In this document: positions 44,065-48,425 of the stretch, one piece after another
Position numbering within the stretch: position 1 is the stretch's first letter
Layout: each line of letters begins with the position of its first letter
Source of the DNA: Escherichia virus KFS-EC
Direction: 5' to 3' (one strand)
DNA length: 64,000 nt
Sequence record: MH560358
The notes under the pieces: generated by a model
The model's input: the letters and a program-made list of their open reading frames with translations, nothing else
What the model was told of the DNA's origin: nothing
Databases searched by the model: none
Translations under genes and position numbers: made by a program

Positions 44065-44317
44065 GCGACTAGCTGATAGACCATTGTTGCAACCAAAGCC
44101 AGAAAATACATCTCGATTGGTGCTTCTTTGATCAATCGTACAATCTCATTCATACTTCACCTCATACATTCATAAACACAACAACGAATAATACAGTAAC
44201 AGTTATTAAAGCCATTTTCAACCCCATATTCATAATATTTTCTTCGCCTCACTATGACAGTAGCATGTCGATGCGTGCCATTATAGGCATCTAAATCGCT
44301 CTGTCAAGCACTAAAAA

Positions 44318-44348
44318 CAAAAAAGCCACCCCGAAGGATGGCTGATAG
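44318..44348 (-). terminator. intrinsic terminator downstream of hoc
   Basis: AGCCATCC-TTCG-GGGTGGCT hairpin + T-run on minus strand. Confidence 0.6.
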
Positions 44349-44354
44349 ATTTCA

Positions 44355-45581
44355 TTAAGCAGGATGCGTTTCACGAATGCGTAGAACTCGATCTGACGTC
44401 TCTCGGTCCAGTTTATGGAACTCTTTGGAATGATACATGAAACCATTGCGAGATTCCATGCAAGTGCAATCACTATATTTTTCTTCCGCTGCCGCGATTG
44501 TCTCCAGATCTTTGGCGTACTTGCTGGTAGAATAAACTTCTCGGTCACGCCACTCTAACCCAGCCTTATTGTATTTAACGATCTCGTCAAATACCCACCA
44601 TCCAATGTAGATAAATGAAGTTTTGCGCCACGGGATCGGGTGTACGTAACGAAACATTTTATGAAGAGATTCAACAACTTCCATTGAACATTTTCTGCTT
44701 GCACTTGATGCAACTTCTACTGTTTCCTCTTCGATCTGTTGATATAGTTTAGCAACACACCAGAATTTGGCTGTGTCATCGTAAGTAGCACGCTCTTTGA
44801 ATAGATGACCGTCTGGCATGATAGAAAATCCTTCCAGTGCTTCGCCGTCCTCACTACCGATCAGAGTCGGTGACGGTTGCCCTTCGCGCTGCAAATACCA
44901 GTTATGTTTGATCGTCAATTTAGGCATACCGCTAGAATCGCCTACAATGTCCTCTGACACAACATAATTAAGTAAGATCTCCTTACCTAGTGCCACGGTC
45001 TTTGATTCCACCACATCCTGATCTACGTTCATTGTTGCCAGCATGATTTTAGTCGATGCGCTATCGGCTGAATCTTCCGACTCACCCCACACTTTTACAG
45101 TATACACGCCGTTTTTATCTGCTGTAAATTCTTTGATTGTAATATTCTGTTTTGTGTCTATAACTTCTTCGCCCTTACTCCAACTATAATGTAGTTCATA
45201 GTTGTCTGCTGGAGTCTTCCCACCCGAAAATTTTACTGTTGCATGTAATTCTACGTCTTTTTGTGATGATACGTAGAAATGCGGCGGTTCGGTGATATTT
45301 ACGATTAATTCAGCTTCTTCCATGAGGAAAACGTCAGATTCTACTGATGTCGTCGTATCGGTATCTTGTACCGTTACTTTATAGCTACCCGCATTTTCAC
45401 TTGTTGCGTCTGCTACAGTTAGCGTAGCTGTGCTATTTTCATGCGGTTGGTCGTCTTTTGTCCATGTATATGTCAAATTGCTGGGTAATGGTTCGTCACC
45501 CGTTACAGTCGCCGTTAAGGTGAAACCATCGCCAGCAAGAAAACATCTTTTGTCAGATTTAATTGATACTGTGAAAGCCAT
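44355..45581 (-). CDS. hoc: head outer capsid protein Hoc (Ig-like domains)
   Basis: N-terminal MAFTVSI..., repeated Ig-like TYTW/KVTV segments, C-terminal YVHPIPWR...IGWWVFDEIV...ESRNG matching recalled T4 Hoc C-terminus. Confidence 0.8.
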   Translation of the reverse strand: MAFTVSIKSDKRCFLAGDGFTLTATVTGDEPLPSNLTYTWTKDDQPHENSTATLTVADATSENAGSYKVTVQDTDTTTSVESDVFLMEEAELIVNITEPPHFYVSSQKDVELHATVKFSGGKTPADNYELHYSWSKGEEVIDTKQNITIKEFTADKNGVYTVKVWGESEDSADSASTKIMLATMNVDQDVVESKTVALGKEILLNYVVSEDIVGDSSGMPKLTIKHNWYLQREGQPSPTLIGSEDGEALEGFSIMPDGHLFKERATYDDTAKFWCVAKLYQQIEEETVEVASSASRKCSMEVVESLHKMFRYVHPIPWRKTSFIYIGWWVFDEIVKYNKAGLEWRDREVYSTSKYAKDLETIAAAEEKYSDCTCMESRNGFMYHSKEFHKLDRETSDRVLRIRETHPA

Positions 45582-45846
45582 ATAAAGCCACTCCCATAGA
45601 AAATCCGAATTTAATTAATTGAAATAGTTGATTGCCATCAACCAGATAACCATTGCGAGATTCCAATACATGAGTATTAGAATAGTGATGCAACGAGGCC
45701 GAAATAGTATCGATCTCGTCTGGGTATTTGTTCTGTTTGATGTAATACATTGATTTTGTTAGACATGTAGTATCCTCTTTTTAATTGCATAACGGAACTA
45801 CAATTAAAATTATAACAAATATTTCACAACTTTTATCACCCAAAAA

Positions 45847-46572
45847 TTACTTGAGTGTGTGGAATTGGCTATGTTTAGTCTCTCGCACCTTGACAGACCC
45901 ATCGCGTTTGATATAATAGATCAGTGACTTGAGGGTGTCGTGTACATACGCGTGCGGGAAACGCTCTGGATACTTCTTCCAATCTGGAGTATTAACGATC
46001 CAGTCGAAAATCCACCACGGGCAGGAGTAGTAACCACGACCGCCACCGATCAAGCAAATGGTCGGACGGAAGCCAGTAAGATCGCAAAATGAATCAGTGT
46101 CATGTGCTGGGGAACGATGCTCTGCTTCGTTAGAGAAAATGTTGGCTACCGGAGATTCCACTTTAACTTCCGGTGCTTCTTCAACATCTGACTTAACTTC
46201 TTCGACCACTGGTTCAACTGCTGGAGATTCTTCTTTTGTTTCTTCAATGGCGATCTCAGGTTCTTTCATTGCTTCAACCAGAGACGGATCAACTTCGTCG
46301 AATACCACTTTATCATCTGCGGTGTCTGCTGCCAGAATAAGATCGTTAATACTGGTTCCTTCTGCCGGAGTTTCTTCTTCCATTTCGGAAGCCAGTTTAG
46401 TTAATTCGGTTTCTACGAACTCGATCATGTTCTCTAGTGATAAAGTCTTTTTGACCTTAATATCAAATTGTTTTGCGTAGTCAGCTAATTCTGTTTTAGC
46501 TGTTTTCTGTGCTTCTTTGTCGTCGGACGCCGCAATAGCGCGGAGTTCTTCGAAATATTCTTTATCAAACAT
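45847..46572 (-). CDS. inh: Inh-like protein with Hoc-type C-terminal WW motif
   Basis: Position between hoc and uvsW as in T4; acidic middle; C-terminal CPWWIFDWIV parallels Hoc IGWWVFDEIV. Confidence 0.45.
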   Translation of the reverse strand: MFDKEYFEELRAIAASDDKEAQKTAKTELADYAKQFDIKVKKTLSLENMIEFVETELTKLASEMEEETPAEGTSINDLILAADTADDKVVFDEVDPSLVEAMKEPEIAIEETKEESPAVEPVVEEVKSDVEEAPEVKVESPVANIFSNEAEHRSPAHDTDSFCDLTGFRPTICLIGGGRGYYSCPWWIFDWIVNTPDWKKYPERFPHAYVHDTLKSLIYYIKRDGSVKVRETKHSQFHTLK

Positions 46573-46598
46573 GTTATTCTCCTGATTGGGGGTGTTTG

Positions 46599-46606
46599 TA
46601 TAAATA
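46599..46606 (+). promoter_or_regulatory. T4-type late promoter (TATAAATA)
   Basis: Exact TATAAATA 37 nt upstream of the uvsW ATG. Confidence 0.55.
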
Positions 46607-46642
46607 TTTGTATACTGTATTTATTGAGTGAGGCTATTCGCT

Positions 46643-48145
46643 ATGCAAGATATTAAAATTCACTTTCTGAACTACTCCCATGTTCAAATTGAATGTAGCG
46701 ATTCAATTTTATTAGAAATGCGAGATTATTTTAGTTTTGAAGTCGAGGGAGCGCGGTTTCAAAAAAGATTTAAGTATGGTGGATGGGATGGGCGTATTCG
46801 TCTTTTAGATTACAACGGAAAGCTGCCAATCGGCCTAACTAAAACCGTGGGAATCTTCGCTAAAAATATGGGCTATAGCGTATGGGTAGATCCTCGCTTA
46901 TTCGAAAAAGAACAAGTTACAGAAGAAGAAATTACAAAATGGTGTAATGACTTAGAATTATATTCCGGTGCTAACAGGATCACCCCGCATTGGTATCAAT
47001 CAAAGGCTGTCTTTGAAGGTATCCATCATAAACGCCGTATGTTAGTTTTGCCTACGTCCGCTGGTAAATCTGCGATTGCTTGTATGTTGTCTCGCTGGTA
47101 CTTAGAGAACTACGAAGGGAAAGTGCTGATCATCGTTCCTACCACGTCGCTAGTGCTGCAAATGCGTGATGATTTTGTTGATTATCGCCAGTTTCCGTAT
47201 GAAGCAATTCATACTATCATGAGCGGTACTAGTAAACACGTAGGTGATCGCCTGATCGTTGTTAGTACGTGGCAATCAGCATGTAAACAGCCTCGTGAGT
47301 GGTTCCAACAATTTGGGATGGTAATTGTTGATGAATGTCACAAAGCCACTGCTAAAAACCTGCTAAACATCGTTACTGATATGGCTCATTGCCAATTTAA
47401 GATCGGCATGACTGGTTCCCCTCGTGACGGGAAAGCTAACATGATGCAGTATGTCGGGCTTTTCGGTGATATTTCCAAGATCGTGAGTATTGACCGCCTG
47501 ATGGAAGAAGGGCAGGTGACAAAACTGAAAATTAACTGTCTTTTCCTTCGTTATACCGATGAGGAATGTAGCGCGGTTAAGGGGCGAGAATATGCGGAAG
47601 AGATCAAGTATATTACGTCTAACCCACGACGAAATAAGTTTGCTTGTAATTTGGCGCTAAAACTCGCTAAGAAGGGCGAAAACGTATTCCTTATGTTCCG
47701 CAATACTAAGCACGGAAAACTTATGTATGACGCGTTACAGAAGGTACACGACAAGGTTTATTATATTGACGGTGGAGTTAAGACAGAAGAACGTGATGAA
47801 TTTAAGAAAATGGCGGAGGGTGACACCGGGATCATTTGTGTTGCGTCTTATGGTGTATTCTCTACTGGTGTTTCAATTAAGAATTTGCATCATGTTATTT
47901 TCGGTCATCCAGTGAAGGAATCAACTATCGTTCGTCAGAGTATCGGTCGTGCATTGCGTAAACATGGTTCGAAAGACATTGCAACGGTCTGGGATCTTAT
48001 AGATCATCTGGCGGTGAAGACAAAGAGCAAGAATGCTAAGAAACAGTTTAGCCACCTTAATTATGCTCTTAAACATGCGCTTGAAAGAATAAAAATTTAT
48101 AACACCGATCGATTCGAATATGTCACGAAAACAATCGAGATTTAA
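46643..48145 (+). CDS. uvsW: UvsW SF2 DNA helicase
   Basis: MQDIKIHF N-terminus like recalled T4 UvsW; Walker A LPTSAGKS, DECH box (VVDECHKAT). Confidence 0.85.
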   Translation: MQDIKIHFLNYSHVQIECSDSILLEMRDYFSFEVEGARFQKRFKYGGWDGRIRLLDYNGKLPIGLTKTVGIFAKNMGYSVWVDPRLFEKEQVTEEEITKWCNDLELYSGANRITPHWYQSKAVFEGIHHKRRMLVLPTSAGKSAIACMLSRWYLENYEGKVLIIVPTTSLVLQMRDDFVDYRQFPYEAIHTIMSGTSKHVGDRLIVVSTWQSACKQPREWFQQFGMVIVDECHKATAKNLLNIVTDMAHCQFKIGMTGSPRDGKANMMQYVGLFGDISKIVSIDRLMEEGQVTKLKINCLFLRYTDEECSAVKGREYAEEIKYITSNPRRNKFACNLALKLAKKGENVFLMFRNTKHGKLMYDALQKVHDKVYYIDGGVKTEERDEFKKMAEGDTGIICVASYGVFSTGVSIKNLHHVIFGHPVKESTIVRQSIGRALRKHGSKDIATVWDLIDHLAVKTKSKNAKKQFSHLNYALKHALERIKIYNTDRFEYVTKTIEI

Positions 48146-48188: not shown

Positions 48189-48425
48189 ATGATTAGCTTT
48201 AAACGTTTTTTGGTTGAGGCCGCTATTGACGGTTTCATGCGTAAGATTTATTCTTGTAATACTATCGAGGGATTAAATGAACTTGAGGCATATTATGAGA
48301 AGCGCAAGAAAGAAACAGAATTGAAACCTGCTGATGATATTTCGATCCGTGATGCCATCGCCGGACGCCGTAAGCAATTGGAAGCGGACAACGAGCCAGA
48401 AGAGGAGCCGGAAGAAGATTTTTAA
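48189..48425 (+). CDS. uvsW.1: UvsW.1-like small protein
   Basis: 78-aa ORF directly after uvsW; acidic C-terminus. Confidence 0.6.
   Translation: MISFKRFLVEAAIDGFMRKIYSCNTIEGLNELEAYYEKRKKETELKPADDISIRDAIAGRRKQLEADNEPEEEPEEDF

Follow-up and report, generated by a model that had tools for sequence, protein, structure and literature searches.

Escherichia virus KFS-EC belongs to the genus Krischvirus, i.e., the RB49-like T4-type coliphages, and we analyzed a stretch of 64,000 nucleotides (nt) of its genome (sequence record MH560358; hereafter "the window") that ca. 50 Krischvirus genomes match at 97-99% identity around the locus discussed here, led by Shigella phage Sf20 (99%). On the minus strand, this locus has the order inh, ORF63, hoc, with uvsW on the plus strand beyond inh (46628-48145), and it raises the question of what ORF63 is: an open reading frame (ORF) of 63 codons that overlaps the start of hoc by 23 nt and shares an ESRNG motif with the end of Hoc, next to an Inh protein that shares a tryptophan pair (WW) motif with it. 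A preliminary description of the DNA had taken these likenesses for a partially duplicated or frameshifted capsid-binding module of Hoc and Inh, and the strings that it quoted from the three proteins are indeed all found on the minus strand where it had placed them. Part of its proposal stands, given that ORF63 does hold a piece of such a module in a decayed and frameshifted context, but this piece appears to be the remnant of a third gene and not of hoc or inh. We consider it highly probable that the spacer between inh and hoc (45582-45846) is what deletion has left of a second hoc gene and that Inh carries a complete Hoc capsid-binding domain.

The spacer between inh and hoc

The likeness between ORF63 and Hoc around the ESRNG motif goes well beyond chance, as had been suspected, with an ungapped BLASTP alignment of ORF63 residues 7-45 to residues 353-391 of the resident Hoc (33% identity, E = 8e-8) and a match to the very end of the PHROG Hoc profile phrog_1149 (positions 1107-1145 of 1150, E = 2.9e-6), besides one to phrog_14282 (E = 7.4e-5). 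A tblastn search matched ORF63 at 77% identity to the end of an annotated 846-aa (amino acid) "hypothetical protein" of Shigella phage SSG23; ca. 257 weaker matches in other T4-like genera all lie at hoc 3' ends, and IMG/VR holds two loci related to the ORF63 region. An intact copy of the SSG23 gene, called large hoc in the following, separates inh from hoc in six Krischvirus records (SSG23, SFHK24, Brandy, JK32, UPWr_E1, and G2248; 846-847 aa), all of which have the gene order uvsW, inh, large hoc, hoc. Its SSG23 product contains multiple immunoglobulin-like (Ig) domains (Pfam Ig_3 in six stretches) and ends, with RYVHPIPWRRTSFQYQGYWVLDEIDRCNREGLNWLEDFTHTKYPDEIETIAASLHHYSNTHVLESRNGYLVDGTQLF followed by the stop codon, in a complete Hoc capsid-binding domain. 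The six records hence encode a long Hoc and a short one (408-410 aa) side by side, with related capsid-binding domains, much like the two Hoc proteins reported for Serratia phage Muldoon (1174 and 314 aa) and Enterobacter phage PG7 (Fokine et al. 2023, PMC10385173). Unlike in Muldoon and PG7, the long copy has been destroyed in the genome of the window, making for a presence/absence polymorphism within the genus.

This destruction can be read directly from the spacer, which aligns to both ends of large hoc and to nothing between them. Positions 45900-45731 match the sequence upstream of large hoc together with its first ca. 32 nt (88-92% identity), and positions 45730-45504 match its last 112 nt, the adjoining spacer, and the start of hoc (73-89%). 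The 5' piece corresponds to the start of the intact gene (MSDKINILHQT.../MSNKINVLHQTE...) in SSG23, UPWr_E1, Brandy, and G2248 at 88-92% nucleotide identity, while 33 of the 36 residues of the 3' piece are the same as at the C-terminus of the intact gene. The primary deletion begins at codon 41, ends at the second base of the Thr codon preceding KYPDE, and comprises 2,309 nt on the scale of SSG23 or 2,312 nt on that of UPWr_E1; both lengths are 3n+2, which is why the remnant pieces are out of frame with each other. On reading the junction, for which no motif scan was run, we saw no obvious slippery motif for a programmed frameshift from frame A of the 5' piece into frame B of the 3' piece.

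Relative to phage Phi1, the window shows a second deletion of 75 nt between CAGAA repeats, and Phi1 accordingly retains 75 nt more of the large hoc 5' end (MSNKINVLHQTEDPVYGSVGHPLLLKIVVSTADF...). In this Phi1-type state (9 phages in 12 records), the old Shine-Dalgarno (SD) sequence and ATG read 37 genuine codons and then nonsense, together forming the 54-aa ORFan168.1, and a stop blocks the frame of the ESRNG motif. The short form seen in the window is present in ca. 37 records including RB49, JSE, and Sf20. Further down, the stop codon of large hoc is TAA in four of four intact copies examined and has changed in the window (Table 1), and the terminator hairpin of intact genomes (GCCGACCTTCGGGTCGGC; annotated in G2248) has shrunk to TTCGGA, with no terminator called in the window at 45582-45618.

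Laid over these pieces, ORF63 is a chimera. Its start ATG sits out of frame inside the ancestral I-N-V codons, codons 1-6 are the 5' remnant read out of frame, and codon 7 (N7) straddles the deletion junction; only codons 8-43 (K8-F43), which include the ESRNG motif, are genuine C-terminal tail of large Hoc, and codons 44-63 (Q44-N63) result from read-through of the old stop and the former spacer into hoc. Judged by its sequence, ORF63 thus belongs to neither hoc nor inh and sits in the scar that the deletion of a third gene, a large multi-Ig paralogue of hoc, has left behind. The ancestor would have had the gene order of the six intact records, with a large hoc of ca. 846 codons for around eight Ig-like domains and the Hoc capsid-binding domain. 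Out-of-frame loss of ca. 2.3 kb would then have left its first ca. 40 and last 37 codons, i.e., the Phi1-type state, after which the 75-nt deletion between the two CAGAA repeats would have reduced the N-terminal part to 12 codons as in the window, RB49, JSE, and Sf20. Loss of the frame-B stop with these 75 nt, the change from TAA to CAA, and loss of the terminator hairpin would finally have opened an accidental frame of 63 codons.

Two annotations of other phages belong to the same locus, Phi1 ORFan168.1 and RB49 ORF168. ORF63 equals RB49 gp168 according to the annotation of Sf20, and the 29-codon frame-A ORF of the window corresponds to a shortened ORFan168.1, which Arbiol et al. 2010 (PMC2839356) listed as a Phi1-specific ORFan of unknown origin near the variable hoc. 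Here, both appear instead as two overlapping readings of a single large hoc deletion scar.

Table 1. Positions of genes, remnants, and motifs at the inh-hoc locus of the window
Feature	Position	Strand	Profile match or remark
ORF63, chimeric, 63 codons	45559-45750	-	phrog_32100, E = 8e-49
ESRNG of ORF63, aa 30-34	45649-45663	-	
5' remnant of large hoc: SD AAGAGGA, ATG (45764-45766), 12 codons MSNKINVLHQTE	45731-45777	-	
Deletion junction, 5' piece in frame A / 3' piece in frame B	45730-45731	-	BLAST breakpoints and direct reading
3' remnant of large hoc: last 36 codons KYPDEIDTISASLHHYSNTHVLESRNGYLVDGNQLF and former stop, now CAA (45619-45621)	45619-45730	-	
Former spacer between large hoc and hoc, with hoc ribosome-binding site GGAG	45582-45618	-	
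Frame-A ORF, 29 codons, from old large hoc SD/ATG: MSNKINVLHQTE, then out-of-frame QIPRRDRYYFGLVASLF	45677-45766	-	phrog_19377, E = 9.6e-16
inh, 241 aa	45847-46572	-	phrog_1051, positions 1-229 of 229, E = 1.4e-76
C-terminal domain of Inh, ca. aa 165-241	45850-46080	-	
WW of Inh in CPWWIFDWIV, aa 186-187	46012-46017	-	
Loop R-E-T-K-H-S of Inh, aa 230-235	45868-45885	-	
hoc, 408 aa	44355-45581	-	phrog_1149, E = 1.6e-81
WW of Hoc in IGWWVFDEIV, aa 328-329	44595-44600	-	
ESRNG of Hoc in CMESRNGFMYH, aa 376-380	44442-44456	-	

ORF63 as remnant or gene

ORF63 keeps ca. 36 of the ca. 95 residues of the Hoc capsid-binding domain (equivalent to Hoc residues 354-389), which form its last third with helix 3, strand 3, the ESRNG loop, and strand 4. 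The strand with the HP[IL]PxR motif is missing, as are the WW helix and the DWK segment, which leaves ORF63 far from a complete Hoc domain with its four-stranded sheet and three helices, and a Pfam scan of ORF63 gave no match. The 36 retained codons evolved differently in intact genes and in the scar: comparisons of intact copies with one another give nonsynonymous-to-synonymous counts of 0:20, 0:19, 1:18, and 1:7, as opposed to 4:3 on the branch to the remnant (loss of the stop included; Fisher p = 0.002-0.003 against the intact copies), and a single additional nonsynonymous change separates Phi1 from the window. The marks of a functional gene, i.e., start signals of its own, a frame that is intact in relatives, and purifying selection, were all found to be missing from ORF63. 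It is therefore most likely a nonfunctional pseudogene fragment, and we conclude that the remaining role of the scar would be to carry the ribosome-binding site of hoc.

The alternative that survives best, though we regard it as improbable, is that ORF63 is a functional small gene that has been kept as a useful mini capsid-binding peptide or modulator of Hoc attachment. Several observations weigh against a mere remnant and would suit such a gene: the frame is open and 95-100% conserved in the ca. 37 records with the short form, where it makes up a PHROG family of its own (phrog_32100) with the ESRNG loop and its flanking strands intact; loss of the old stop codon has made it longer; stand-alone Hoc C-domain proteins exist elsewhere, such as a 91-aa protein of Klebsiella phage Tauntaun; leaky initiation or re-initiation may allow its translation; and the contrast in substitutions given above is based on only seven of them. 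However, the ATG of ORF63 is not preceded by an SD sequence of its own, the only one nearby (22 nt upstream) serving frame A, and its first seven codons are an out-of-frame accident. The nine Phi1-type phages have a stop in this frame, and the missing strands 1-2 and helices 1-2 comprise the hydrophobic core of the domain. The ratio of nonsynonymous to synonymous changes is relaxed on the remnant branch, and conservation of ORF63 does not exceed that of the surrounding DNA.

As a side observation, Hoc-type proteins can be very short in other phages. The Tauntaun protein (L018:6165-6440) consists of the capsid-binding domain alone, and others of 166-177 aa, as in Erwinia phage Cronus (L007:2120-2620), have one small N-terminal module in addition.

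The C-terminal domain of Inh

The inh gene of the window is an orthologue of T4 inh, which encodes the minor head protein known as "inhibitor of prohead protease gp21" (43% amino acid identity, uvsW-inh-hoc synteny), and Inh homologues occur in 1,421 phage records. Its putative inhibition of the gp21 prohead protease is a functional name taken from annotation only, to which we add the assignment of its C-terminal domain. Inh is composed of an N-terminal helical module (aa 1-66), an acidic linker (ca. aa 67-160), and a Hoc-type C-terminal domain that also contains the string YYIKRDG; a full-length AlphaFold2 (AF2) model reaches a predicted local distance difference test score (pLDDT) above 95 at both ends (95-98 in the C-terminal domain) and 55-75 in the linker.

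We show that the Hoc capsid-binding domain has, over its whole length, a homologue with the same fold in the C-terminal ca. 75 residues of Inh. Inh and Hoc proteins were collected from T4 and from Acinetobacter, Aeromonas, Klebsiella, Citrobacter, Proteus, Salmonella, and Erwinia phages, with the alignments made from GenBank phage loci; a protein homologue search gave one Hoc C-domain match and four Inh fragments. Eight Inh and 13 Hoc C-termini share the elements [WY]W[IV]xD[WE][IM] ... DWK ... [IV][RQ]E[ST]RN[SG] in the same order, with ...P[WY]WI.DW[IM]...PDWK...LKSL.YYI.RDGSV.IRE[TS]RNS.F.. as the pattern of Inh and ...G[WY]WV.DEI...G.DWK...VQESRNGYI.. as that of Hoc. The respective strings of Aeromonas phage 50AhydR13PP are VPYWIHDWM and RESRNSKF (Inh) versus VPYWVHDWM and QESRNGYI (Hoc). 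Aligning the two sets with hhalign gave a probability of 97.4% (E = 1.5e-11 over 71 columns), and with 95 Inh cluster representatives it gave 98.0% against Hoc (E = 1.8e-13, score 68.9), compared to scores of at most 15.7 for 30 column-shuffled controls.

Structure prediction points the same way. An AF2 model of Inh residues 152-241 (pLDDT 87.7) has two terminal strands that flank the loop, and a search of BFVD with it returned Inh proteins first and then ca. 20 Hoc proteins at a probability of ca. 1.0. This predicted model has the same fold as the solved C-terminal domain of T4 Hoc (PDB 8T1X/8T9R; PMC10385173), placing both the Inh C-terminus and residues 8-43 of ORF63 in one domain family with it. 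T4 Hoc has its elements in the same order as Inh and ORF63, with two strands flanking an E-S-R-N-G-type loop that lies in the middle of the gp23* hexamer (Fokine et al. 2023, PMC10385173). Compared to T4 Hoc, Inh has the full domain with a different N-terminal strand motif and a variant loop, and a helical and acidic N-terminal part replaces the Ig domains. The cited study does not mention Inh and reports no structural relatives for the C-terminal domain of Hoc. The suggestion of a capsid-binding module common to Hoc and Inh has thus held up, with highly significant support from profile-profile and structural comparisons and none from pairwise ones.

Several results nonetheless speak against this reading of Inh. 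Pairwise BLASTP of the Inh and Hoc WW regions is insignificant (E = 0.79), and in a search of 177,635 PDB sequences with the Inh profile the best match, T4 Hoc 292-359, is marginal and nonsignificant (E = 0.054). The same profile run against 1.84 billion proteins found ca. 95 Inh clusters and no Hoc among 100 significant matches, so that linking Inh to Hoc takes a profile-profile or structural comparison. The loop of the window's Inh reads E-T-K-H-S instead of E-S-R-N-G, and conservation in Inh does not extend to the strand-1 motif of Hoc, HP[IL]PxR, of which Arg300 contacts gp23. The insignificant pairwise alignment, and the failure of searches of profiles against single sequences to join the two families at database scale, could also be taken to mean that the likeness of the C-termini arose by convergence or is a chance match of motifs and not due to common descent; next to the shuffled controls, the shared order of the elements, and the common fold, we find this very hard to believe and retain homology as the explanation.

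The loop itself varies within the Inh family, whose consensus is R-E-T-R-N-S with invariant E and S and with R and N in at least 90%. Krischvirus Inh proteins have R-E-T-K-H-S where nearly all others have R-E-[TS]-R-N-S, i.e., the presumed capsomer-contact loop of Inh is diverged in this genus. A Pfam scan of the Inh and Hoc C-terminal domains gave no match with a copy of Pfam-A lacking PF26098.1; precomputed annotation places this entry on the Inh C-terminus of four metagenomic Inh fragments (P0044-P0047).

There is next to no chance that ORF63 recently arose by partial duplication of the resident hoc 3' end or that it is a detached, frameshifted tail of inh with which it once formed one protein. 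Both ideas could draw on the WW half being in Inh and the ESRNG half in ORF63, as well as on the YYIK string that starts ORF63 and recurs near the Inh C-terminus. Yet alignment to the 3' end of the resident hoc gives only 56% nucleotide identity in codon register (33% at the protein level) with one identical run of 18 nt at the ESRNG codons, versus 88-92% to the large hoc of relatives, and the similarity to the resident hoc appears to be old paralogy rather than recent duplication. Inh in turn holds the whole domain with a loop of its own and an end residue that is constant across ca. 95 clusters, in intact relatives a gene for 846 aa stands on its own between inh and hoc, and the YYIK echo is coincidental, MYYIKQ being the out-of-frame reading of ancestral codons for ...INVLHQTE. 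A sequencing or assembly frameshift is virtually inconceivable as well: relatives with one long intact ORF at the position of ORF63 do exist, as this explanation had anticipated, but they differ by a deletion of ca. 2.4 kb (ca. 2.3 kb of it in the primary event) and not by an indel of 1-2 nt, and the same junction is found in ca. 50 independently sequenced records, including RB49, JSE, Phi1, and Sf20.

Inh resembles Hoc in its overall build: a module at the N-terminus is followed by a flexible acidic linker and by the Hoc-type domain at the C-terminus. We infer that it might dock on gp23 capsomers through its Hoc-type domain. More tentatively, and with slightly less than even confidence, we propose Inh as a third protein that uses the Hoc anchor to dock on the gp23 capsomer, perhaps where Hoc binds or close by, and perhaps as early as the prohead stage; the acidic linker would then tether the N-terminal helical module to the shell. 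If so, Inh and Hoc could compete for the capsomer centers or hand them over, and the recruitment of this "protease inhibitor / minor head protein" to the shell would gain a physical basis. It counts against this proposal that Hoc is known to bind expanded capsids only and to do so from without, while an inhibitor of the protease would be expected to work within the prohead, so that the binding site of Inh may be a different one; moreover, no experimental localization of Inh was found in the literature searched.

The surrounding genes and the capsid surface

The resident Hoc, with Pfam matches to Ig_2, Ig_3, and PKD, is close to RB49 Hoc, the three Ig domains of which have been crystallized (3SHS; match over residues 1-303, E = 8.8e-183). 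Its residues 308-385 match T4 Hoc residues 289-364 in 5VF3/8T1X (T4 Hoc C-terminal domain, E = 4.3e-13). On the minus strand of 44200-46700, the late promoter motif TATAAATA was found neither exactly nor with one mismatch and a TATA start, and the hoc promoter was consequently not located. Directly 3' of hoc, a strong terminator hairpin (44343-44324, minus strand) is followed by a perfect TTGACA-16-TATAAT promoter (44307-44280, minus strand), an arrangement (44280-44343) that resembles the promoter-early stem-loop (PeSL) cassettes associated with hoc (Arbiol et al. 2010, PMC2839356). A 65-aa "head outer capsid protein" annotated at the same side of hoc in phage phiS (L003:3784-3981) looks spurious, being an ORF across terminator and spacer that has no similarity to Hoc.

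Another perfect sigma-70 promoter (TTGACA, 16 nt, TG-n-TATAAT; 12 of 12 positions) lies inside the 3' end of inh at 45890-45917 on the plus strand, antisense to inh and facing uvsW ca. 700 nt away. Pieces of inh are also found in bacteria: 17 of 5,426 complete E. coli genomes carry prophage-borne fragments of Krischvirus inh (256-465 bp, 86-99% identity; loci L012, L013, and L022; window positions concerned: 46014-46535 in inh, and 48358-48416) that sit between tail/endolysin genes and a serine recombinase. Their ORFs of 98-153 aa keep the N-terminal and linker parts of Inh and invariably break off short of the Hoc-type domain, either at F168 or precisely at W186, in the WW motif. The inh fragment of strain UTME-9 is joined to a piece of a small ORF downstream of uvsW, suggesting that a phage segment was captured and uvsW deleted later. 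The flanking genes in the prophage belong to the T5orf172/CapR-domain (GIY-YIG-like) homing endonuclease type, relatives of which are found just beyond uvsW in Krischvirus JK32, and the fragments likely stem from endonuclease-associated exchange between lytic and temperate phages. PADLOC gave no defense match, and they may serve as decoys or in defense.

Both the interpretation of the spacer as a scar and the domain homology of Inh and Hoc appear to be unreported, and we found no paper on an Inh-Hoc relationship in the literature searched. Two ORFan annotations would be resolved, with RB49 gp168 (phrog_32100) and Phi1 ORF168.1 (phrog_19377) being overlapping readings of one pseudogene scar, and the genus Krischvirus would offer a natural polymorphism of one versus two Hoc proteins. 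The capsomers of the window's phage would accordingly carry a single Hoc species where two would otherwise compete, with the centers left to short Hoc. Hoc fibers mediate adhesion and dispersion, and the polymorphism therefore bears on capsid surface properties, phage display, and isolates for phage therapy. While ORF63 would be a case of ordinary gene decay, the relationship between the Inh and Hoc domains adds something modest, yet real and open to testing. With Inh, a second near-universal T4-like family joins the Hoc capsid-binding domain, and an obscure minor head protein turns into a testable candidate for capsomer binding that may provide more natural scaffolds with a Hoc anchor.

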